A stretch of 64,000 nt of DNA from Spirochaetia bacterium (GTDB lineage Bacteria > Spirochaetota > Spirochaetia > DSM-2461): the NCBI GenBank assembly GCA_963668315.1, contig OY764216.1, forward strand, positions 928,001 to 992,000. Reading direction: 5' to 3'. Positions 46,100 through 57,049 of the stretch are shown here, in pieces (within the stretch, counting starts at the first letter, position 1; every line of letters begins with the position of its first letter). The position numbers were made by a program, and so were the translations under genes. Under the pieces are notes generated by a model. The model ran no database searches. It had not been told where the DNA came from and worked only from the letters and a program-made list of their open reading frames with translations.

Positions 46100-47098
46100 T
46101 TAAACGGGAATGTGATGGCCCGGGGATTGGAAGGCCCTGAGCATTGGTTCCAGATACCAGGCTTCCCAGTTCCGGTTCATGATATAGCCGCAGTGGCCTC
46201 CCCGGGGATGGTGAATGAAACGCACCTGGGAACTCATTTCCGACGAGGCGATGTGTGAGATGGGAATTATCGGATCATCCTCGGCCGTGAGGAGTGTCAG
46301 CGGAACGGTCACCGAATCGAGGTAACCCTGCTTCAGGTTGTATCTTCCGAAGTAATCTTCCAGGGAACTGAAGGATGTGTACTCTTCCAGGAGCCTTTCG
46401 GTCATGGGGATGCAGCCGTTGAGGGAGAGGAGGGAGTCGAAGCGGTAAATCTCGGGGAAGGTCCTCTGTTTGATGGCCAGGGATCTTTTCCATTTCTTGA
46501 GAAAGTATGTTCTTATCAGGCCTATCTCATCCACTCTGCGGGTCGATTCGAGGGGATCAAAGGGAGGATTGACGGCAAATATATGCTTCAGACCGGCGTA
46601 ATTCCCGTCGGAAGCTTTTTTCGCCACTCTGATGCAGAAATTCGCTCCCATGGAAAAACCGGCGAGGCAGGCGCTTCCGTCCGGGGAGAAGCGCCGGATA
46701 ATCTCCTTGACACCGGTGTAGGCCTCATCAATAAGGGTCCCCAGAAAAAATCCGCGGTTCAACCCGTGGCTGCTGCCGTGGTCCCTCATGTTCAGGCGGA
46801 ATACGCTGAATCCGTTGTCATAGAAAAAACGTCCCGTGCTGATCATATAGGCCGACTTATCGCTGCCCTCCCAGCCGTGGAAGAGAATGAGGAGAGGCGC
46901 CGTCCTGTCCTGATGTGCGGAGAGGAATCCCTGAAGATTCACCCCGTCTCCCCCGTCTATGATTTTCTCCCTGCTGTTGTTTTCAAAATCGCCGATTCCT
47001 TTGTTCCGGAATTTGGCGCTGTTCAATAGGGTCTGGGCCATGGCTCCTTTCAGATACCAGGGGGGATTGAAGTTCGTTTCGGGGGAATTGTCTGCCAT
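46100..47098 (-). CDS. YheT-like alpha/beta hydrolase
   Basis: HGWEGS, nucleophile GFSMG, AEDDP, GGHCG; ATG 47098 after GAAGGA. Confidence 0.85.
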   Translation of the reverse strand: MADNSPETNFNPPWYLKGAMAQTLLNSAKFRNKGIGDFENNSREKIIDGGDGVNLQGFLSAHQDRTAPLLILFHGWEGSDKSAYMISTGRFFYDNGFSVFRLNMRDHGSSHGLNRGFFLGTLIDEAYTGVKEIIRRFSPDGSACLAGFSMGANFCIRVAKKASDGNYAGLKHIFAVNPPFDPLESTRRVDEIGLIRTYFLKKWKRSLAIKQRTFPEIYRFDSLLSLNGCIPMTERLLEEYTSFSSLEDYFGRYNLKQGYLDSVTVPLTLLTAEDDPIIPISHIASSEMSSQVRFIHHPRGGHCGYIMNRNWEAWYLEPMLRAFQSPGHHIPV

Positions 47099-47218
47099 GG
47101 GTGTTCCTTCTGAAGTAACTAAGCTTACCCATAATATCATGTATTCAGGGGTCTGTCTTCTGTGCTGCCCCGTTTAAATTCCCCCGATCCTGATGTATGA
47201 TGGGAAGGGGGGACGTGT

Positions 47219-47701
47219 ATGACCTTATTGTATATAACGCTGGCTCTTTGCCTTGTTTCCTTTCTCGTCGACAGAGAGAAGACCCTGGCCGGAATAAAAA
47301 AGGGTTTGAAGAAGTTCCTGCGGGTTCTTCCTGTTTTTCTCATCATGATAATCGTAACATCCCTGGTCCTGACTCTGCTCCCCCGTGAGGTCATATCCCG
47401 TTATCTTTCGGGGGAAAACCGGTTTCTGGCCGCTCTGGCGGGGCTGGCGTGCGGGTCCGTGGCCCTTCTGCCCGGTTTTATCGCCTTTCCCCTGGGGGGA
47501 ATGCTCAGAGAGCAGGGCGTGCCCTATTTCGTTATCGCCGCGTTTACCTCCAGTCTGATGATGGTGGGGGTTCTGACTTTTCCCGTGGAAAAGACCTTTT
47601 TCGGAACCCGTTTCGCCCTGCTCAGGAATCTGGCCGGGGTTGTCATTGCGGCGGCGGTGGCCCTGGTCGCGGGATTGTTTTTCGGGGAGATTCTGCCGTG
47701 A
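47219..47701 (+). CDS. Predicted permease, half 1 (DUF318/ArsP-like, split)
   Basis: Hydrophobic 160 aa; PGFIAFPL, MVGVLTFPVE, FG.RFALLRN. Confidence 0.7.
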   Translation: MTLLYITLALCLVSFLVDREKTLAGIKKGLKKFLRVLPVFLIMIIVTSLVLTLLPREVISRYLSGENRFLAALAGLACGSVALLPGFIAFPLGGMLREQGVPYFVIAAFTSSLMMVGVLTFPVEKTFFGTRFALLRNLAGVVIAAAVALVAGLFFGEILP

Positions 47702-48204
47702 AAAAGAAAAATGCGGCCTCCTGGATTTTTCTGGCGGCTTTTGGTCTGTTTGCCCTTCTCTCTTTCCTCTTTGACTGGAACTGGGGAATGGAGGCGTCCC
47801 GGTCATTCGCCGGTAATTTCAAGCAGATGGCGGCGCTTCTTCCCTGCGCCTTTATTCTGATCGGGCTCTTCGAGGTATGGGTAAAGAGGGAGACTATTGA
47901 GAAGCATCTGGGCGAAGGGGCGGGCTGGAAAAGTTATCTGTGGGTGATTCTTCTGGGCGGCCTGACCCTGGGACCCATGCTGACGGCCCTGCCCGTGGCG
48001 TCGGCCCTGTGGAAGAAGGGGGCCGCCCTGAGCGTGGTCATTACCTATCTGGGAGCGGCGGCGGTGTGCCGGATTCCCATGACGATTTTCGAAGCATCTT
48101 TTCTGGGAATTCCCTTTACGGTGATCCGTTATGCCACGGCCCTCCCTCTGGTCGTGGTCAGTTCCCTGGTGCTGAGCCGTTATCTGAAGGGGCGTCTTCC
48201 CTGA
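47698..48204 (+). CDS. Predicted permease, half 2 (DUF318/ArsP-like, split)
   Basis: GTG overlaps the stop of the previous gene; ILIGLFEVWV, GP..ALPVA..L.KKGA, IPMTIFE..FLG. Confidence 0.7.
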   Translation: MKKKNAASWIFLAAFGLFALLSFLFDWNWGMEASRSFAGNFKQMAALLPCAFILIGLFEVWVKRETIEKHLGEGAGWKSYLWVILLGGLTLGPMLTALPVASALWKKGAALSVVITYLGAAAVCRIPMTIFEASFLGIPFTVIRYATALPLVVVSSLVLSRYLKGRLP

Positions 48205-48832
48205 GCTGTTTTCTCCAGGTTATCAGCCCCCGTACGGCCAGAATCAGAAGTATCACATAGAGAAGGGAGAGGAATTTCACTTCCTTGACCCAGTAAAGCC
48301 CTATGGCAATCACATCCACCACAATCCAGATCATCCAGTTTTCCGTCCGTTTGCGGGCCAGGAGGAACATGGCGGCGAAGCTGGAAATCGTTGTAAAGGC
48401 ATCCAGATAGGGAAAATCGGCGGCCAGGGGAAAAAGGGCGGGAAGGATGAGGTGAATCCGGGCCATGAGATAACCGCTCAGGGCCGATACGATAAGGATT
48501 CCCCCGAGCCAGCATAAATTGTTTCCCACGCTGCCCGCTTTAACGGTTATTTCCCTCTCTTCTCCCCGGTCACGCATCCAGTACCACCAGCCGTAGGCGC
48601 TGGCTCCCAGGTAGTAGATCTGCTCCAGGCAGTCCGAATAGAGCTGGATCTGATAAAAGAGCATCCCGTAGAGGATCACCGAAGCGATTCCCACGGGCCA
48701 GTTGAGCATTCTCTTCTGCGATATGAGCCACACCGACCAGAGGTAAAGAATCGTACCGACGAATTCGATATAGCTCATGGGGTACCCCATGAAGATGAAA
48801 AATATACTGTCTATGGAAAAGAAATTTACCAT
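48158..48832 (-). CDS. pnuC: Nicotinamide riboside transporter PnuC
   Basis: NWPVGI, LYSD..QIYY....YGWWYW, LDAFTT.S, ENW..WIVVD; adjacent to a NadR-like gene. Confidence 0.88.
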   Translation of the reverse strand: MVNFFSIDSIFFIFMGYPMSYIEFVGTILYLWSVWLISQKRMLNWPVGIASVILYGMLFYQIQLYSDCLEQIYYLGASAYGWWYWMRDRGEEREITVKAGSVGNNLCWLGGILIVSALSGYLMARIHLILPALFPLAADFPYLDAFTTISSFAAMFLLARKRTENWMIWIVVDVIAIGLYWVKEVKFLSLLYVILLILAVRGLITWRKQLREDAPSDNGSAPGN

Positions 48833-49821
48833 GTGTGATTCTCCTTGTAATGATTCAGTTCCCGGGCGACCCGATCCATCCTTTCGCTCAGACTGCCTTC
48901 CAGAAGGACATAGGGGATTTCTCTCCTGTCCAGATCCCGGCGAAAACTCCTTTGGAACAGGCTCCTATGGACTTCTCCGGAACGGTCCTCCGTATCGTCA
49001 TAGGGAATATCGTCGCCGCAGAGAAAATGAAGGTCGTACCGGTCCCGGCAGTCATCGGCCAGAAGCTCCAGTTCCTTTACAGCCGATCCGTGATAATCCA
49101 GGGCGAAATGATAAGTAGACAGGGCTCCCGTGTCAACAAAGAAGTAATCCCCCCCTATATAGGCCTCTTCTACTTCCTTTTTCCGGTGAATCCGGGCGAT
49201 TTCCAGGAGCTGTTCACCGGTCAGGCGGCGATTCCTCTGGTGCTTTTCCCAATATTCCCGGCCGTACTCGGCCATCCAGGGACAGGTGTAATGTTCAGCC
49301 AGAGTCCGGGCCAGGGTGGTCTTCCCCGTACTGGGGGCTCCGTGAAATACGGCCTTGATTATATGGTCAAAGTAAACCGGCGGGGGTAGGAATTCCCGAA
49401 AAGCCGGGGGATTCTCCCGTATCAAGGTTGCCGAAACGGGGATATGGATTCTCCGGGGATCCACCTGGCGGTTTCGGCACTTAAGGGCGCGGCTCATATG
49501 TTCCCCGTAGGGTTCGGAGGAGTAGAAGCTGTGAATGGGGACTCCCCCCAGAAGCTTGAGAACGTACTCCTCCTGGCATTTCATTATCTCCGGTGAGTAG
49601 CCCGTCTCCTCCGGTCCGTCCGGGGCCGTAATTACCTCGACCCGATGGGGGAAGCACTCCCCTATCCAGGCCGCCCTTTTATGAAGCGGTATAGACGTAA
49701 GTCTGCTTTGGTAAATTATCACCTTAACCAGGTCCATCTCCCTAAGGGCCGTTTCGATGACATAGGCATGGCCCCGATGGAAGGGAGCGTATTTACCCAG
49801 GCATAATCCGATTTTTCTCAT
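48826..49821 (-). CDS. nadR: NadR-type bifunctional NMN adenylyltransferase / ribosylnicotinamide kinase (no HTH)
   Basis: GKYAPFHRGH (HxGH), SSEPYG, PVSATLIR; P-loop GAPSTGKTT, EYGREYW, VDT, DIPY..DR. Confidence 0.85.
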   Translation of the reverse strand: MRKIGLCLGKYAPFHRGHAYVIETALREMDLVKVIIYQSRLTSIPLHKRAAWIGECFPHRVEVITAPDGPEETGYSPEIMKCQEEYVLKLLGGVPIHSFYSSEPYGEHMSRALKCRNRQVDPRRIHIPVSATLIRENPPAFREFLPPPVYFDHIIKAVFHGAPSTGKTTLARTLAEHYTCPWMAEYGREYWEKHQRNRRLTGEQLLEIARIHRKKEVEEAYIGGDYFFVDTGALSTYHFALDYHGSAVKELELLADDCRDRYDLHFLCGDDIPYDDTEDRSGEVHRSLFQRSFRRDLDRREIPYVLLEGSLSERMDRVARELNHYKENHTW

Positions 49822-51173
49822 AAACTGTCGGGGACCTCCGTTTGGAAGGTTATGATTTTCCTCTCCCCGTCCAGGCCGATGTTATCGCCCCTCTTCAGGG
49901 GAAGGTTTTGGGCACCGTACCCCTTGAGTACAATCGCGAGAGAGGAGAGAACTTCCTCTTCCTTTCCCGTGTTTGCGGGCAGTCCTACTTCCAGTGAGTA
50001 ATCTACCCGCTGCACTATTCTATAGGCAGGGAGGGCCAGGGGCGCCAGGGCTCGGGAAAAATCCACCGTATTGATCCATCCCCCTTGGGGCAGGGGAAAA
50101 CGTACCGGCTTACGGCCCTGGAAATCTGCCAGATATAACCTGTCCCCATCCCTTCGAATCCGGCAGAAATCTCCCGTTCGGTAGCGGATAAGGGGTAGGT
50201 AGGGATTATTGCCCCCGCTCAGGGCCAGCTCACCCCACTCTCCGTCGGGAAGGGAGCGGTCCTCCTTGGGATCGAGGATTTCCAGGAAAAGGTCGGGGCG
50301 CATGGATTGGGTCATCCCTTTTCTTGTCCAGGCGATGTTGCGGCACTCGGTCATGGAATAGACGTCAAACAGGGGGCACTGAAAGTGGGCTTCCAGCCTA
50401 TCGGCCAGTCCGGAAGAGAGGGTCATGGCACTGGAGATCATGGCTTGGGGCCTCAGGGGGATTTCCCTTTCCATCAGGGCGGCGAAGGCCAGGGGATCCC
50501 CGGTCAGCAGGGAGGGATTGAGTTCTGTCAAATACTTCCGGCAGTCCTGGGGATCTCTCCACTGGCCGGGATGGAGGTTGACCTTTATAAAACCGGCCCC
50601 GTCCAGATAGGACGAAACAGAGGCGTATGTCAGTGTTTCCAGCTGGCTGCAGATCAGGGCTATGGCGGTTTTCCCCGGGCCTCTTGCCAGGCTGATCCCT
50701 TCGGTTGAGAGCATTTTCTCTACCTGCGGCAGCCAGGAGGAGGCTTCTTCCGGGCCGAAAATCACATCCAGCGGGGCTCCCGTTGTACCGGAGGTGGCGT
50801 AGCAGAGGATATCATCGAGGGGGGCACTGTCTCTTACGAAATTCCAAGGCGCCCTTCGCAGGTCCTCCCGGCTAAAGGAGGGGGCCCGGAAGAAATCCGA
50901 CGGATAATCCCGGTAAGCGGGAACGTCGGAAAGGACATCTTTGTAGAACCCTTCTATGAAGTCTTCCGCAGCAAAATTCCCCCTTCCGTCCATATCTTTC
51001 CTGTAGACATTCAGGTTTTCCAGATGTTTCCCGGTCAGCCGGTCTCCCGACTTGAAATTGTAACGGGGAGAGTTGGGATGCTGGCGCAGAGCGTTAAGCC
51101 AATTTAGATTTTCAGCAGCGGGGAACCGTTCCTCATCGGTGAGAACCGGCATAATCTCTTTACTCTCTGCCAT
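49818..51173 (-). CDS. PaaK/CapK-like AMP-forming (ANL superfamily) ligase
   Basis: ATSGTTGAP (A3), DVYSMTE (A5), LIRYRTGD (A7), QGR (A8). Confidence 0.8.
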   Translation of the reverse strand: MAESKEIMPVLTDEERFPAAENLNWLNALRQHPNSPRYNFKSGDRLTGKHLENLNVYRKDMDGRGNFAAEDFIEGFYKDVLSDVPAYRDYPSDFFRAPSFSREDLRRAPWNFVRDSAPLDDILCYATSGTTGAPLDVIFGPEEASSWLPQVEKMLSTEGISLARGPGKTAIALICSQLETLTYASVSSYLDGAGFIKVNLHPGQWRDPQDCRKYLTELNPSLLTGDPLAFAALMEREIPLRPQAMISSAMTLSSGLADRLEAHFQCPLFDVYSMTECRNIAWTRKGMTQSMRPDLFLEILDPKEDRSLPDGEWGELALSGGNNPYLPLIRYRTGDFCRIRRDGDRLYLADFQGRKPVRFPLPQGGWINTVDFSRALAPLALPAYRIVQRVDYSLEVGLPANTGKEEEVLSSLAIVLKGYGAQNLPLKRGDNIGLDGERKIITFQTEVPDSL

Positions 51174-51744
51174 AGGTATTGGCCGCTTCCCGGGCTCTTT
51201 TTTCCCGCATCTTCCTTTTTATCTCCTCCGCCCGGCTGTGGGCCTGGCGGCTCTGCTCTTCCAGTTCGGCGCGATAGAGAGTATCCAGGGCCTTAAGCCT
51301 GTCTTCCCCTTCGCGGGGCGTTTCTCCCCGGGGGAACAGACCGCACCAGTGAAGGGCCAGGCGGCAAAGCTCTTCCCGGCGGGCCGGGTTTCCGATCATC
51401 TGGGGAGGAGAGACAAGGCGGACTAACCTGTCCATATGGTCGTACCCCCGGGAAAACCCCGGGCCCAGCTCTTCTCTTCCGTGAAACCAGGGGTGGGAGT
51501 AGAGGTAGGCCAGGACCTGCAGCCCCTGCCAGTGGCCGATCTCCCAGTTTTCCCAGCGTTTTTCCAGGCGGGATGCCAGTTCATCGGGTATTTCTACTTC
51601 CTGGAAAATAAAGAGGTCCTTTACTATCGCCAGGCTGTGAACTTTGGATAGGGAGTGGGAAGGGAAGGGGAGAGGGTTTTCCAGAAACAGTGCCGGGCAC
51701 TCGCTTAGGTAATTAAGCAACTCTTCAAGGGTCGGGCTGTTCAT
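51160..51744 (-). CDS. Hypothetical protein of the MoxR operon, helical with charged C-terminal coiled coil
   Basis: Overlaps both neighbours; RREELCRL...GET..EDRL..LD, REKRAREAA. Confidence 0.7.
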   Translation of the reverse strand: MNSPTLEELLNYLSECPALFLENPLPFPSHSLSKVHSLAIVKDLFIFQEVEIPDELASRLEKRWENWEIGHWQGLQVLAYLYSHPWFHGREELGPGFSRGYDHMDRLVRLVSPPQMIGNPARREELCRLALHWCGLFPRGETPREGEDRLKALDTLYRAELEEQSRQAHSRAEEIKRKMREKRAREAANTYGRE

Positions 51745-53489
51745 CCTTTTCCTCCAAATTTACCGGCGGCGAATTTTTTCGCGAACAGGGAAAGCTCTTC
51801 GTCATTGGAAACATAGTAAATCGTCCATCCCTCTTTTCGCAGAATATCCGCCTCCTTTTTATGATACTCCGGCCGGGAATAGAGGACCAGTGACCCGCCG
51901 CCCCCGCAATTCTCCATAGCCTTTTTGGCTACATCCCAGGTTTTCTCTCCCTCTCCATACCAACCGCCTCCCAGCATGGCGAAAATATCGTCATCGGTAA
52001 GGAGAAGGATATGGGTTTTTCTTTTGCGGGGGCGGGAGAAGTCCCTTCGCAGCCGGGGGATGCCAAAGGCGTATCCGGTCCCGAGATAGGATACAAGGAC
52101 ATCCATGATTTTCCGGGAGTCCCGTACAAAGCTCTCCGTTTCCATGAAAGAGCCCGGTTCCCCCGAAAGGGTTACTTTTACACGGGCTCCCCCGCGCAGG
52201 GCGGATTGGGCGATGATGGTCCCCGCCAATACGGGCCAGCTGAAGTTAATGGCCGGATTGCCCATAGAACCGGAACAGTCGATTCCTATGTAAAGATCCA
52301 AGGGGGTATAGGCCAGGGTATCTCCCTCGTCGGGGGCAAAGACCCGCTTTACCGTGGTCATCCCGGGAATGACCTCGGGGCTTCTTATGAGGGAGCCGAA
52401 CCAGTCTATTTCCCCCGGATTATCCCCCAGGTCCCACGATTCGAGCCCTTCGGGAATGACCCCTTCGGTCTGGGGAACCTTCTCTTTGGGGAAGGGAATG
52501 AGATAGGGGGCGGAAATTTGTTTGTAGTATCGGGCCAGGGCTTTGTGTATATCCAGTCCCGCCGGGTCGAGCTGCCGTAAATAGTCCAGATAGTCCCGGG
52601 GGGATTTGTATCTCTGCCGGGGCCCTTCCCCGGAGGATGACTTCTCCGGTATCCTACCGGCCAGGTCTTCTCCCTCAACAGGTCCAAGGGGCTCATCGTC
52701 AAGGTCTCCCGGGGGGGCTTCCAAGTCCGCCCCGACCCCGGAAGAGCCTTCGGAAGCTTTCAAGGCATCCATTATGAGAGTCCAGGTTTCGGCTTTACCC
52801 TCTTCCTCCCACAGATAGGGGTAGAACAGAATCGCATAGGAGTAGGCCCCTTCCAGCCAATCCCCCGAGTAGGAGCGTATAATATGAGCCCCCATTTCGC
52901 TGTCCCTATCCAGCTGTTCCCCCCTGTCCTCACCGGGGCGGACTCGGGTCAGTTCCCCCGGCTTAAGGGAGTAGAGCTTCTCGTAAATTCCCAGGTAAAG
53001 GTTCCAGACGGGGGAGGGATTCGCTCTTTTCTCCCTTTTCTGGATCTTTTTGTAGATATCGTCCATGCGAAGGCCCCGGCGGCTCTGGAGATGGTAGTTT
53101 ATCAGATGATCGGCAAAGAGATTCATAATTCGGGGGGCATGCTCCTCCTTTTCGGTCAAGGCTTTTCTTACCAGGGTGAGCATGCGCCCGTTATCGGTGA
53201 GATTGGCCGGCACATAAACGTGGTGGCCAATCTCATGGGCCAGAATCTCCAGGGCATAGTCGTCCAGGCCGTACTGCTTTATGAGCGAGCCATCCAGGAC
53301 GATGCGGTGATCCTTGAGCCTGATCATGGCAAAGCTGCCCTCCAGTCCCTGTTCCTTCGCTTCCTCCCGGGAAAAGCACCAGTGGGGAGGGCGCATCATT
53401 ACCAAGTGGCTCCACTGCCGCAGGGCCTCTTCCCATCGGTCGTCCCACATGCTGCGCATTTCATCCATCAGTTTATCACTTCTACCCAC
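51741..53489 (-). CDS. HEXXH metallopeptidase-like domain plus vWA (MIDAS) domain protein
   Basis: AHEIGHH; acidic/Pro-Gly linker; IGIDCSGSMG (DxSxS), GTG, LLLTDD. Confidence 0.8.
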   Translation of the reverse strand: MGRSDKLMDEMRSMWDDRWEEALRQWSHLVMMRPPHWCFSREEAKEQGLEGSFAMIRLKDHRIVLDGSLIKQYGLDDYALEILAHEIGHHVYVPANLTDNGRMLTLVRKALTEKEEHAPRIMNLFADHLINYHLQSRRGLRMDDIYKKIQKREKRANPSPVWNLYLGIYEKLYSLKPGELTRVRPGEDRGEQLDRDSEMGAHIIRSYSGDWLEGAYSYAILFYPYLWEEEGKAETWTLIMDALKASEGSSGVGADLEAPPGDLDDEPLGPVEGEDLAGRIPEKSSSGEGPRQRYKSPRDYLDYLRQLDPAGLDIHKALARYYKQISAPYLIPFPKEKVPQTEGVIPEGLESWDLGDNPGEIDWFGSLIRSPEVIPGMTTVKRVFAPDEGDTLAYTPLDLYIGIDCSGSMGNPAINFSWPVLAGTIIAQSALRGGARVKVTLSGEPGSFMETESFVRDSRKIMDVLVSYLGTGYAFGIPRLRRDFSRPRKRKTHILLLTDDDIFAMLGGGWYGEGEKTWDVAKKAMENCGGGGSLVLYSRPEYHKKEADILRKEGWTIYYVSNDEELSLFAKKFAAGKFGGKG

Positions 53490-54373
53490 AGGTAATGGCT
53501 ATCCTCCTTCAAATGGATTTTCAACTTTCCCTTCTCTTTTCCGCCGGGAAGGGTAAAGAGCCTGTCCTCATGGAAGGGAAAGGGAATAAGCCGGCTGCCG
53601 AAGGAGTCGGAAAAGAGCAGAAAAGCCCTCCTTTGATCATGGAGGATGAGTCCGGTGGAGCCCAGGGCGTCCGTCCCTTCCAGGCGGCGGCAGTGGGGAG
53701 GAAGGAGAAAAGGCCCGCCGTATCCGGCAAATCCGCCCAGCCGGCCCCCGGTATAGTCTCCGGGGATAGCCCAGGGATTTTCCCGGGCCGATTCCAATTG
53801 GCTGCGCCCATAGGGAAAAAGGGAGGCCAACTGCCTGTCGGAAAGCAGCTCGCATCCATCCAGAGCTGGAATGCGCCATTCGGCCATTCCCAATGTCCAG
53901 GCGGCCAATCGGCCCAGGGCAAAGGCCTCTTCCTTCCGTTCGCATACCATAAGGGGGGCTGCCATTTGATCGAGCCAGTCCCGCCGGGTCCGGGCATCGG
54001 GGAGAGAACGAATCGCACCGTCCCAGGAAGTAAGAAAGGAGCGTAATTCACCGGAAGGGAGGGCCTCTTTCCGGTTGAGAAAAGGGGCCAGGAGCAGCCA
54101 ACCCTTAAGAAAATCCCCATTAAGCATCATCTCTCCGCCCCGAACCAGAGGGGGGAGGGTCGTTTCAATACCGTGGATCATCAGGTTGAGCAGATGGTCC
54201 GATTCTCCGTAAGCTTCATAGAGAGCGGTGAGCAGAGGTGTCAGGTGCTTACCCAAATCGGCATCGGCCAAACGGGGATGGGAGAAAAGCAGCCCGTCCA
54301 GAACCGGCTGGATGTTCTCCTCTTCCCGGGCGAGAAAAGAGGCGAGGCCCCCCTCTATTTCCACTGGAGCCAC
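53468..54373 (-). CDS. Hypothetical protein of the MoxR operon
   Basis: Overlaps both neighbours; LAAW..G...WR..AL, GGFAGYGGPF..PP, SDSFG. Confidence 0.7.
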   Translation of the reverse strand: MAPVEIEGGLASFLAREEENIQPVLDGLLFSHPRLADADLGKHLTPLLTALYEAYGESDHLLNLMIHGIETTLPPLVRGGEMMLNGDFLKGWLLLAPFLNRKEALPSGELRSFLTSWDGAIRSLPDARTRRDWLDQMAAPLMVCERKEEAFALGRLAAWTLGMAEWRIPALDGCELLSDRQLASLFPYGRSQLESARENPWAIPGDYTGGRLGGFAGYGGPFLLPPHCRRLEGTDALGSTGLILHDQRRAFLLFSDSFGSRLIPFPFHEDRLFTLPGGKEKGKLKIHLKEDSHYLWVEVIN

Positions 54374-55932
54374 CTCTTGTAGTTCGTATAGCGCTGGTGG
54401 AAGTACTTCAATTTGAGAATATCGTCGGCCATATGGCCGTACAGTTTTCCGCTTCGGCTCATTTCGCTGAGGATCTGCTCAATCTGGAACATTCTCTTCT
54501 CCACTTCCGAGATGGAGAGACCCTCCATCCCTTTCTCAAAAAGTTCCTCCATCTTGGCCACCGGGTCGTATTCGTCCAGTTTCAACCGGGCGTACTCCTG
54601 GCAGGAGAGGTCGAAGCATTTTCGTATCCAGGTTATCCGGTCAACCCGGTAAGGGGCGTTCTCCTCCTTCTCGAAGAAGGGCGATTCAAGATGGGGAGAG
54701 AGGGCGTCGTGCAGGACGAAGGGCAGAATCTGCCGGATATCTTCCAATTCCACCTCATCCAGCCCTCTGAAGTAGGCCATGGCCTTGGCGTAGAGCAGCA
54801 GGGTCATGAGCTTTCTTACGGAAAGGCCGTTTTTGGCCTGGCTTCCCAGATCGCGGTTCATATCCTTGCCGCTTTCAAGTTCCATCAGTGATTGAAAGTC
54901 CAGGCCGGAAAGCTTGGCCGTGTCCTTTGTCATATAGTCCAGCTTCGTCGATGCCGGTTCGAAAAACTCAAACTGCCGGGCGAAAAATTCGATTTTGCGG
55001 CGGAGCGGGGCGGGAATGGCCACGGCCAGGATCTCCTTATAGAGGGTGTCCAGCTCCTCATCGGTAAAGATGATCTCCCGGGGAATGTTCTTTTCCGGCT
55101 TGTACCCCGTTTCTATTCTCCTTTGGAGATCCTCTACGAAGCGGGTGTTAAAGTGGAGAGCCCGGATAACCACATCGATTCTGTCTTTGAGCGCCTCAAT
55201 GACCTGATAGGTCCCGCCCCCGGCGTCATCGTTGGCCGTCAAATACCAGGCCGCTTCGGGGCACTCGTAGATCTGATCCATAATTTCCGCGTAGTTGTCC
55301 GCCAGAACGGTGAGCAGGGCCGATTGGGTCCTGGTGGGAATCCGGTTGTATTCGTCTATGATCTTCACTTTCATCTCCAGCCACTTTCTCCAGGAGATGC
55401 GTATCTGCGAAGGATCCTCCGATTTCATAAGATCCCCCGGGAAGGGATGGCCGAGCAGGTCGGCCACGGTCATCTGGGGCTGGCCGTGCTGAATGGCCCG
55501 CTTCATATCCTTGAGGTCGTATCCCGCCAGGAGCCCCATGAGAATGGAGGTGGCCGTTTTTCCCCTTCCCGGGCCTCCCACGATCAGGCAGCGCTTGCGC
55601 ACCGCCAGGGTCAGCAGGGGAATCAGGACAAAGCTGGAGTAGCACTGGCCGGTGGGAAGATCGACCTGAACCTTGGAGTCCCCGAAAAAGTAGGACTGGG
55701 GAGCCTTTTCGTTATACTCTATATCGTAGAAAGGGCTGATAATGGCCGTATTGGTAATCCAGAAGTAGGCCTGGCGGAGTTTTTCATCCAGGCCGGTTCT
55801 CTCCTCGCCTTTTTCGCTTTCCGAAGGATTTTCAAAAAGATCCTTTATTCGGAATGGGGTCCTCTTGGCGCCCCGGTCCACCGGGTTGGTGGGGGCTGCC
55901 GGAATATGGTGGGATTGGTCTGACCGCTGCAT
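54355..55932 (-). CDS. MoxR-family AAA+ ATPase
   Basis: Walker A GGPGRGKT, Walker B IIDEYNR, TQSALL, sensor-1 LTAN, EALKDR arginine finger; AAGGAG SD. Confidence 0.88.
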   Translation of the reverse strand: MQRSDQSHHIPAAPTNPVDRGAKRTPFRIKDLFENPSESEKGEERTGLDEKLRQAYFWITNTAIISPFYDIEYNEKAPQSYFFGDSKVQVDLPTGQCYSSFVLIPLLTLAVRKRCLIVGGPGRGKTATSILMGLLAGYDLKDMKRAIQHGQPQMTVADLLGHPFPGDLMKSEDPSQIRISWRKWLEMKVKIIDEYNRIPTRTQSALLTVLADNYAEIMDQIYECPEAAWYLTANDDAGGGTYQVIEALKDRIDVVIRALHFNTRFVEDLQRRIETGYKPEKNIPREIIFTDEELDTLYKEILAVAIPAPLRRKIEFFARQFEFFEPASTKLDYMTKDTAKLSGLDFQSLMELESGKDMNRDLGSQAKNGLSVRKLMTLLLYAKAMAYFRGLDEVELEDIRQILPFVLHDALSPHLESPFFEKEENAPYRVDRITWIRKCFDLSCQEYARLKLDEYDPVAKMEELFEKGMEGLSISEVEKRMFQIEQILSEMSRSGKLYGHMADDILKLKYFHQRYTNYKRWLQWK

Positions 55933-55959
55933 GGTAATCGCTCCTTAGGATGATGGCAT

Positions 55960-55987
55960 AATATAGGACATTTGCCTTATTAATCAA
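55960..55987 (-). promoter_or_regulatory. Putative sigma70 promoter of the MoxR operon
   Basis: Minus strand TTGATT, 16 nt spacer, TATATT, then AAGGAG SD. Confidence 0.5.
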
Positions 55988-56104
55988 ACTTAAATACCGG
56001 TGATTCCTAAGGGGCAGGCAAGAATTTACTCTGATAGAAGAATTGAAAGGGTACGCTAAATAAGTTTTTCTTGACTATTATCAGGTATATTGTATCTTCA
56101 ATTG

Positions 56105-57049
56105 ATGAACGAATTTAATGACAGTAATTCTCAGGCACAGGGAATGACCTGTGATCTGGAAACAGGTAGCTGCGGCCACACAGATACCGCCGATACAATA
56201 GAAATTATCACCCCCCAAACTACCCGCACAAAAGTTCAGATCATGTATTTTACAGATCCCATCTGTTCTGCCTGCTGGGCCATTGAGCCGGAAATCAAAC
56301 GGTTTAAACGGGACTTCGGAAGCTATGTCGATGTTAACGTACGGATGGGGGGACTGCTCCCGGGGTGGAAGGGCTTCAGCGACGGGGGAAACGGAATAAA
56401 CAAGCCCTCCGATGTGGCAGGCCATTGGGATGAGGTGGGAAGGGCCAGCGGAATGAGCATTGACGGTGATATATGGCTGGAAGATCCTCTGGAATCCTCC
56501 TATCCGGCGTCGATAGCCTTTAAGGCGGTGGAAATAGCGGAACCCCGGGCTTCGGGGAGATTTTTACGTATATTGCGGGAGATGGTCTTTCTGGAAAAGA
56601 AAAATATTGCCCGAAAGGAGAATCTCGAGTTGGCCATGGGACGCGCCGGGGCAGACGTGGGGGAGGTGAACCTCCTTATTGAAAACGGAACGGCGGAGAA
56701 AGCCTTCGAAGCGGACCTGGAAGAGGGCCGCCGTCTGGGAGTGAGGGGATTTCCCGCTTTTATTGCTTTCGGAGCGGACGGAACCGGATACAGGGCTTCC
56801 GGAATTTACTCCAGCGATCAATTACGGGACTTGTTTTATAAGGCCCTTGGCAAGGCTGTGGAGCCGGAAGGGAAAGCGGTTGACATCAAAGAGCTTCTTT
56901 CCCGTCAGGAGCTGACGGCGACCAGAGAGATATCCCGATTGAGCGATCTGAGCGAGGAAGAGACCCGTTCGCAGCTGATGGGTTTGACCTCGGCCGGTTT
57001 TGCAGAACATGTGTCCCATAAATATGGAGATTTCTGGCGGCTGAAGTAG
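56105..57049 (+). CDS. DsbA-like thioredoxin-fold protein (YjbH/SpxH-like)
   Basis: YFTDPICSACW, RMGGLL, SSYPASIAFKA, cis-Pro GVRGFP. Confidence 0.82.
   Translation: MNEFNDSNSQAQGMTCDLETGSCGHTDTADTIEIITPQTTRTKVQIMYFTDPICSACWAIEPEIKRFKRDFGSYVDVNVRMGGLLPGWKGFSDGGNGINKPSDVAGHWDEVGRASGMSIDGDIWLEDPLESSYPASIAFKAVEIAEPRASGRFLRILREMVFLEKKNIARKENLELAMGRAGADVGEVNLLIENGTAEKAFEADLEEGRRLGVRGFPAFIAFGADGTGYRASGIYSSDQLRDLFYKALGKAVEPEGKAVDIKELLSRQELTATREISRLSDLSEEETRSQLMGLTSAGFAEHVSHKYGDFWRLK

Follow-up and report, generated by a model that had tools for sequence, protein, structure and literature searches.

What draws a MoxR-type AAA+ ATPase, an adenylating ligase and two proteins of nicotinamide adenine dinucleotide (NAD) salvage into one run of overlapping bacterial genes? 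The question is raised by a 64,000-nucleotide (nt) stretch of DNA from a Spirochaetia bacterium (contig OY764216.1, positions 928,001 to 992,000; the whole stretch is called the window below), in which seven genes, g1 to g7, follow one another on the minus strand. We find that this gene set is a real, uncharacterised system, present in scattered bacteria of many phyla. It fits no described system that we found in the literature, in agreement with the initial annotation, which knew of no characterised counterpart: literature searches found no description of it, and none of MoxR together with NadR and PnuC. Its chemistry we infer. To our knowledge, most MoxR-vWA machines (vWA, von Willebrand factor A) are without a known client, and the ligases of the ANL superfamily are known for small acids. 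Here a candidate client (g4), a single residue (E194 of g4) and a predicted complex of ligase and tail make the question testable with purified proteins. If the reading set out below is true, it would amount to a new protein-carrier or tagging chemistry tied to the uptake of NAD precursors, in a system found in a few percent of the genomes of several phyla (759 g4 representatives at E<=0.001, as clusters at 50% identity). The elements concerned, in window positions, are as follows.

55958-55987, minus strand: promoter-like site TTGATT-N16/18-TATATT/TATTAT, weak, with 9/12 matches
55941-55946, minus strand: Shine-Dalgarno sequence AAGGAG ahead of g1
54355-55932, minus strand: g1, MoxR-type AAA+ ATPase, 525 amino acids (aa)
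53468-54373, minus strand: g2, 301 aa, no family assigned, likely adaptor
51741-53489, minus strand: g3, 582 aa, HExxH zinc-peptidase-like domain fused to a vWA domain
51160-51744, minus strand: g4, helical protein of 194 aa, predicted partner and likely substrate of the ligase
51163-51243, minus strand: tail of g4, residues 168-194, of which 168-193 form the predicted ligase contact
49818-51173, minus strand: g5, PaaK-type (ANL superfamily) adenylating ligase, 451 aa
48826-49821, minus strand: g6, NadR-type enzyme without DNA-binding domain, 331 aa
48158-48832, minus strand: g7, PnuC-family transporter, 224 aa

These genes are linked by the conservation of a five-gene core, by which we mean the MoxR gene g1, g2, the HExxH-vWA gene g3, g4 and the PaaK-type ligase gene g5. 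When g1 was searched against GTDB contigs, 226 candidate stretches yielded 47 confirmed loci, with full-length matches of 56-94% identity, from Spirochaetota, Riflebacteria, Planctomycetota, Myxococcota, Oligoflexales and other groups; metagenomes contributed 14 further loci, and genome searches with a g4 profile added more. After six duplicate or own-genome loci had been left out, 56 loci hold both g4 and g5, and the complete core is present in 45 of them, across many phyla. Less than 500 nt separate g4 from g5 in 54 of the 56, loci split from g1-g3 included, and where the operon is split g4 partners g5, not g3. Four loci carry g4-g5 without g1-g3 upstream, and among split or rearranged loci four of the five genomes tested still carry g1 and g3. 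Because several genomes separate g1-g3 from g4-g5 yet retain both halves, a single transcript is not a requirement of the system. The neighbourhood search thus bears out the expectation of a conserved core: since the five genes keep company across phyla, the homologues are not scattered without synteny. The loci are not independent of one another, 13 being from Pirellulaceae and 7 Riflebacteria-like.

The distribution is patchy. The system occurs in 2 of 61 relatives of the host, and in samples of other phyla in 12 of 251, 5 of 251, 2 of 104 and 2 of 401 genomes, each count including the centre genome of the sample, which carries g4 in all samples but the last. MoxR is about 60% identical across phyla. 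No relatives of g3 were found in viral contigs, no g4 matches in the plasmids searched, and no MoxR (g1) matches at E<=1e-10 in phage records. Apparent stops inside g3 in two genomes (G494 and G524) are not internal breaks, the match sitting within one open frame in each. Several loci depart from the usual layout. One (L081:7773-9448), possibly a decaying remnant, has g4 and a ligase that breaks off at 356 aa; neither g1 nor g3 was found in its genome. A divergent variant (L063:7477-18778) has a MoxR of 45% identity, no g2 match and an extra 207-aa gene between g4 and g5; a gene for a TerB-domain protein follows g5 there, and a caspase-domain gene converges on the locus. At L074:2379-8560 a divergent g4-g5 pair stands behind asparagine-synthetase-like, glycosyltransferase and PIG-L deacetylase genes, with MoxR and g3 relatives on other contigs. 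Genes are inserted within the core at L080:6241-8546 (AlbA_2/Schlafen and ParA-like), at L067:6858-10704 (one gene of no assigned function and one for a Ser/Thr kinase) and at L011:15025-15831 (ZIP transporter), and L069 has a second, divergent g3-g4 pair after the ligase (L069:11176-13595).

The motor and its putative partner retain their motif residues. g1 matches the Pfam families AAA_3 (5e-7, above cut-off) and AAA_lid_2, its sole solved-structure match is 2r44, and its Walker A (GGPGRGKT, 55555-55578) and Walker B (DEYNR) motifs are intact in 59 of 59 orthologues. [quoted passage not shown] The 28 aligned g3 proteins measure 567-614 aa, have a fixed architecture and end with the vWA domain. 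In Pfam, g3 reaches M48 only at E 0.02, and VWA is matched in 1 of 28 members, so that the domain calls rest on motif conservation. The combination HExxH...NxxxDxxIN, as seen in those 49 of 54 proteins, is a pattern of DUF2201-type metallopeptidase-vWA proteins; the DUF2201 models of Pfam have no match in the 28 members at E 0.05. The family calls of the initial annotation hold for AAA_3/AAA_lid_2, AMP-binding, AAA_28 with CTP_transf_like, and NMN_transporter; the HExxH and MIDAS calls stand by conservation, not by Pfam. The second gene, g2, is likely an adaptor. It has no family match, and its model (predicted local distance difference test, pLDDT, 83) consists of a helical N-terminal part and a small beta-rich C-terminal part. 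A fold search gave no clear match, the best having Z 7.5 with a root-mean-square deviation of 4.0 over 112 helical residues and barely covering the beta-rich part, nor did Foldseek (best E 0.29 in PDB and 0.11 among viral structures), which proves neither novelty nor absence; a g2 orthologue in a structure atlas gave WD40-like leads only, all weak and below 0.9.

The fourth protein, g4, ends in a glutamate. Its model is confident (pLDDT 93.8) and has a C-terminal helix of 39 residues, the sequence finishing in ...YGRE. It has no family match and no usable match in the structure atlas, and comparison of its fold brought up nothing clear (Z 5.0 at best; E 1.3 at best in Foldseek), which again proves neither novelty nor absence. 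Of 201 homologues, 193 finish with Glu, 3 with Asp and 3 with a Glu that precedes a final Trp, and 171 of the 201 end in Arg-Glu; these homologues are the top profile matches, a selection that favours proteins with a matching tail. The three ending REW, where Glu is not last, are P0100, P0145 and P0197. An attempt to tie tail type to subtype gave an imperfect correspondence, as non-aromatic tails also occur with NadR.

The ligase g5 matches Pfam AMP-binding at 8e-10 and the NCBIfam DVU1553/PaaK models below cut-off, and a profile comparison with solved structures places it in the PaaK-type subfamily (best E 1e-26). As a phenylacetate-CoA ligase proper it reaches 40.9 bits against a cut-off of 646, and no paa genes were found among the neighbours scanned. 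It has TSGTTG, YSMTE, RYRTGD and Lys439; across loci the A3 motif is kept in 47 of 51 ligases, A5 in 45 and A7 in 50 of the same 51. In the A3 to A10 naming of these motifs, the C-terminal Lys motif is the catalytic A10 lysine. In thirteen Pirellulaceae loci (L019-L022, L024, L027, L028, L031, L032, L034, L036, L037 and L043) the ligase ends before, or lacks, the Lys motif; the g4 tails there read RYGE or RYTE, and a SPASM-like radical SAM gene lies upstream in most of them.

Could the tail of g4 be what the ligase acts on? Predictions of the g5-g4 complex, made from paired 48-row alignments with ATP and Mg included, scored 0.78 against 0.00 for the best control; the score mark is reached by 116 of 157 solved pairs and 2 of 215 mismatched pairs, counts that apply only roughly to g5-g4. 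The runs had at least 86% of contacts in common, with a partner pLDDT of at least 74. In the predicted interface, residues 168-193 of g4 lie on the N-terminal domain of g5, whose contacts include 224-226, 246, 248-249 and 273, positions that align to the AGE and YGxxE motifs of PaaK; we take these residues to line the acyl and adenylate site. The predicted tail reaches the SSA(M) and YSMTE positions of the ligase, and an N-terminal extension specific to the g5 family touches g4 in the model. Conservation in g4 is higher at the interface than elsewhere in the protein (0.66 vs 0.45). The prediction supports binding of the C-terminal helix of g4 by g5.

The remaining two genes bring in NAD metabolism. 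g6 keeps both active-site motifs of a NadR-type enzyme, that of the nicotinamide mononucleotide (NMN) adenylyltransferase (HRGH) and that of the ribosylnicotinamide kinase (GAPSTGKTT, EYGR), and has no helix-turn-helix; it matches TIGR01526 at E 5e-41 with 141 bits, below the cut-off of 341, and its best solved match is 9x6f, the enzyme of phage NARP3. g7 matches PF04973 at 6e-51, TIGR01528 above cut-off, and the structure 4qtn. It has a WxxWxxxD motif, of the WxxWxxxD/N type found throughout the PnuC family (PMC5749112); the Gln of 4qtn has no aligned counterpart, and the residues contacting nicotinamide riboside (NR) are partly kept. The two genes would form a putative NR route.

The initial annotation had viewed this NAD+ salvage arm as a local extension of the operon, a view that the wider sample overturns: NadR and PnuC are a recurrent part of the system. 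In the 41 loci whose flanks extend 2.5 kb or more to either side, NadR lies within 2.5 kb 28 times and PnuC 26 times, in six arrangements (core-nadR-pnuC, core-pnuC-nadR, core-nadR, convergent, divergent upstream and co-directional upstream). The g1 and g5 trees each place fifteen planctomycete cores in one clade, and their NadRs fall into two distant clades; a single group of planctomycete NadRs is rejected by the approximately unbiased (AU) test (p=0.0001), the tested group having been taken from the core trees but named after the NadR tree was seen. At least one replacement of NadR in place, by a distantly related one, has occurred. Of the 12 genomes with g4 in one phylum sample, 9 carry NadR (8 of 11 if the centre genome is left out), vs 18 of the 239 that have no g4, a tenfold enrichment at the genome level. 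In 37 genomes of the host's family, a strong PnuC match occurs only in the 2 that have the system. The host carries NadA, NadD and NadE, and PncB was not found in its genome; since the former three are already there, a need specific to NR or NMN would be more economical than a general shortage of NAD. At L069:3128-4642 a nicotinate phosphoribosyltransferase (PncB) gene lies directly upstream of MoxR. Long NadR open reading frames of 515-566 aa, considered as fusions, proved to be over-long frames overlapping pnuC.

Radical SAM genes form a second recurrent association. Of the 41 loci, 12 have an adjacent SPASM-like radical SAM gene, placed upstream or, in four cases, separating g3 from g4. In five loci the ligase is followed by a pair of other radical SAM genes, two of these loci having a second ligase; one of the five, L072, reaches the contig end after the first gene of the pair. 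NadR was not found in any of the five genomes with this paired variant (incomplete assemblies, from at least two lineages). At L010:18352-19836 a co-oriented ADP-ribosylglycohydrolase gene follows the paired radical SAM genes.

What, then, might the system do? We tentatively favour a carrier cycle, with confidence somewhat short of even, in which g5 would adenylate the terminal glutamate of g4, converting its carboxylate into an acyl-adenylate; a small nucleophile derived from NR or NMN, likely supplied by NadR and PnuC, would then be attached to g4, or, in the variant without NadR, a cargo made by the paired radical SAM enzymes. Together with g3 and g2, the MoxR ring might grip and remodel the charged g4, and the HExxH domain might release the cargo or pass it on, so that the carrier is regenerated. 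The joint inheritance of the five genes, the adjacency of g4 and g5, the near-invariant terminal Glu, the intact catalytic motifs and the association with NadR all argue for this cycle, of which the acceptor is the weakest step. Activation of a C-terminal carboxylate on carrier or tag proteins has precedents (PMC8599861, PMC9303977). A more sweeping formulation, which we regard as doubtful, is that the system represents a third prokaryotic route of protein-tail conjugation after E1/ThiF and Pup/PafA. The PaaK-type ligase would adenylate the g4 Glu and join it to a pyridine-nucleotide group (or NAD+ would serve as AMP donor, NadR recycling the NMN), the MoxR-vWA-peptidase machinery would read and reverse the mark, and the radical SAM variants would build or tailor other cargo. 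The initial annotation had proposed a protein-modification or conflict module: the modification half gains from the near-invariant Glu of g4 and its predicted docking, and the conflict half fares poorly, with no PADLOC match in the core and matches in 8 of 96 flanking genes.

A number of observations weigh against the carrier cycle. Of 48 ligases, 35 keep the C-terminal Lys motif, and every one of the 13 in one Pirellulaceae clade lacks it although the terminal Glu persists there, which counts against simple ATP-dependent adenylation in that clade. The g5 side of the interface shows no more conservation than the ligase elsewhere (0.50 vs 0.48), and E194 itself is absent from the confidently placed interface residues. 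We know of no ANL ligase that activates a protein C-terminus. The g4 of locus L061 (11764-12369) ends YANY. NadR/PnuC are not adjacent in 13 of the 41 loci, and the Fisher p of 9e-8 overstates the NadR link because loci and kin are not independent (the 13 Pirellulaceae and 7 Riflebacteria-like loci above). Finally, the terminal Glu is equally well explained as a MIDAS ligand (PMC9976466).

This last point leads to a different reading, which we consider rather unlikely, that g4 is a regulator whose tail plugs the acyl pocket of g5 and whose Glu completes the MIDAS of g3, MoxR pulling off or clipping g4 and so switching on the ligase for a small acid (nicotinate or a nicotinic acid mononucleotide derivative). 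In NorQD an acidic residue of the target supplies the sixth ligand of the MIDAS (PMC9976466), and DxSGS is intact in all 54 g3 proteins; the same model of the complex fits a plug, E194 is not confidently placed in the ligase, L069 duplicates g3 and g4 together, and the terminal Glu persists where the ligase is without its C-terminal Lys. Yet in split operons g4 remains with g5 rather than g3, a MIDAS handle need not be the last residue whereas Glu is last in 193 of 201 homologues, and no conserved downstream enzyme for an acyl product was found among the neighbours scanned. A tagging system that resembles pupylation but is built from unrelated folds, with activated g4 joined to target lysines, the HExxH domain removing it and MoxR-vWA remodelling the tagged targets, is in our view unlikely. 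The gene set does offer a candidate tag, ligase, peptidase and AAA+ motor, and the g4 helix is predicted to dock on the ligase. Such a system would leave the NadR link and the apparent swap for radical SAM pairs unexplained, though, and no conserved protease-complex genes were found among the neighbours scanned; moreover, g4 is predicted to be folded and 194 aa long, whereas Pup is small and disordered. For Pup itself, PMC8599861 describes ligation through the gamma-carboxylate of the C-terminal Glu and removal by a dedicated enzyme.

A role in anti-phage or stress conflict, in which NAD+ is consumed and NadR/PnuC restore the pool as phage NARP3 does, would concern purpose and is compatible with the chemistry proposed for the carrier cycle; we think it improbable. 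In its favour, the presence across host relatives and the four other phylum samples is patchy, the NadR has the NARP3 architecture, L010 has an ADP-ribosylglycohydrolase, and 6 loci, of which 2 are duplicates, have a nucleoside-deoxyribosyltransferase/TIR-like gene inserted after g1 and before g2. But PADLOC has no match for the five core genes, the 8 of 96 flanking genes that it matches have mostly generic domains (kinases, ankyrins), and the core contains no NADase and no variable effector position, with MoxR changing as slowly as its identity of about 60% across phyla indicates. A defence-island setting, examined as a candidate, is not supported by those 8 flanking matches. The insert between g1 and g2 (L028:11561-12529, and in L034, L037, L039 and L042) has a nucleoside-deoxyribosyltransferase domain that also matches the PADLOC TIR effector model, and an N-terminal domain that we take, by eye, to be macro-like. 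That a generic MoxR operon and housekeeping genes of NAD salvage came to lie together by chance, lastly, seems scarcely credible. NadR does occur in 18 of 239 genomes without the system, but the six arrangements, the in-place replacement of NadR and the tenfold enrichment contradict chance linkage, as does the restriction of a strong PnuC match to the 2 genomes with the system among the 37 of the same family.

How does this system compare with those already known? On its motifs it belongs with the MoxR-vWA pairs. Like NorQ-NorD, CbbQ-CbbO, RavA-ViaA and MxaR/S/C/L, it combines a MoxR ATPase with a partner whose vWA/MIDAS domain is C-terminal and whose N-terminal domain is separate (PMC9976466, PMC12276312); unlike them, it has no linked metalloenzyme client, its adaptor has an HExxH motif, and a ligase and a Glu-tailed partner are fixed members. 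The MoxR-vWA ternary conflict systems (Kaur et al. 2020, PMC7159879) likewise have a MoxR-vWA pair with further conserved proteins in strict gene order and are present in Planctomycetota and Myxococcota. Their third component is VMAP, iSTAND, FtsH or a beta-propeller fused to vWA; we recognised none of these by family matches, nor an effector fusion, and the core evolves slowly. Family searches gave no NTPase or FtsH match in g2 or g4, and g3, ending with its vWA domain, leaves no room for a beta-propeller, for which g2 has the weak WD40-like lead. The variable fused or linked domains and rapid divergence of effectors are not seen either, given the fixed architecture of g3 and an effector-like insert in 6 loci only. 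The text of PMC7159879 and two of its supplement files contain no NadR, PnuC or adenylation term. Jumbo phages of group 2.2 have a vWA domain fused to an N-terminal metallopeptidase beside MoxR, but a role in virion assembly is proposed for them and no ligase, g2 or g4 is reported there (PMC7824862).

Pupylation (Pup, PafA, Dop, Mpa) offers the parallel of a Glu-terminated protein accompanied by an ATP-dependent ligase, a candidate enzyme for its removal and an AAA+ motor. The enzymes PafA and Dop, however, have a glutamine-synthetase fold and work through an acyl-phosphate (PMC8599861), whereas here the ligase is PaaK-type and g4 is predicted to be folded and helical; none of the seven proteins matches a Pup ligase, and by the searches run no part is homologous to pupylation. 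Amino-group carrier proteins (LysW, Vzb22) and pearlin peptides are closer in logic, with cargo loaded at the C-terminus of a carrier, tailoring by enzymes that include radical SAMs and release by a protease, and the former share with g4 a globular domain with a C-terminal extension (PMC9303977). Pearlin systems rely on PEARL ligases, and neither kind has a MoxR-vWA motor or NadR/PnuC. No ATP-grasp or PEARL ligase was found among the core genes or recurrent neighbours. The amino-group carriers are served by ATP-grasp ligases. With the known PaaK-type ligases (phenylacetate-CoA ligase, NatL2, AjiA1 and the DVU_1553 family), g5 shares the subfamily by profile and the adenylation motifs, but it lies far below every curated cut-off, has its N-terminal extension and is predicted to receive a protein tail near the acyl site. 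The two-gene architecture of g6-g7 is that of NARP3 (phage NadR and PnuC; PMC13464706) and of bacterial NR salvage. The g6-g7 pair differs from NARP3 in being cellular and tied to the five-gene core, its PnuC having D in WxxWxxx[N/D] and no aligned Gln of 4qtn.

The layout of the unit in the window is as the initial annotation had described, with overlaps of 19, 22, 4, 14, 4 and 7 nt when the longest starts are used. For g2, a GTG at codon 4 has the better Shine-Dalgarno sequence and corresponds to the 298-aa database call, the g1-g2 overlap then being 10 nt; for g3, a start at the ATG of codon 8 would reduce the overlap with g2 to 1 nt (TGATG). The AAGGAG ahead of g1 (55941-55946) is present as claimed. 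The promoter suspected near 55940-55987 did not survive scrutiny: with 9/12 matches it is not above chance, because 6 sites of this kind occur where shuffled sequence leads one to expect 4.5. One transcript across all seven genes is plausible. A near-consensus sigma-70 site (TTGACA-N17-TATCAT, 11/12) lies within nadR at 49108-49136 on the minus strand, about 280 nt before pnuC, and is retained in L001, but in coding sequence; it could provide a separate transcript for pnuC. At its end, pnuC (48158-48832, minus strand) overlaps by 47 nt the 3' end of a convergent gene for an ArsP-like permease (47698-48204, plus strand), and no clear terminator for the operon was seen at this convergence. An Rfam scan of 47000-57000 gave 2 chance-level matches and no riboswitch. 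Upstream, a divergent gene for a DsbA-like thioredoxin (56090-57049, plus strand) has a 157-nt intergenic region in common with the operon; it is not kept beside the system elsewhere. The GC content of the operon is 55.8%, vs 51.3% for the genome. The region upstream of g1 (window 55933-56060) is unrelated to its counterpart at L001:9873-10000, though MoxR is 94% identical between the two genomes, and, with the flanking genes also differing, this suggests movement of the whole unit.

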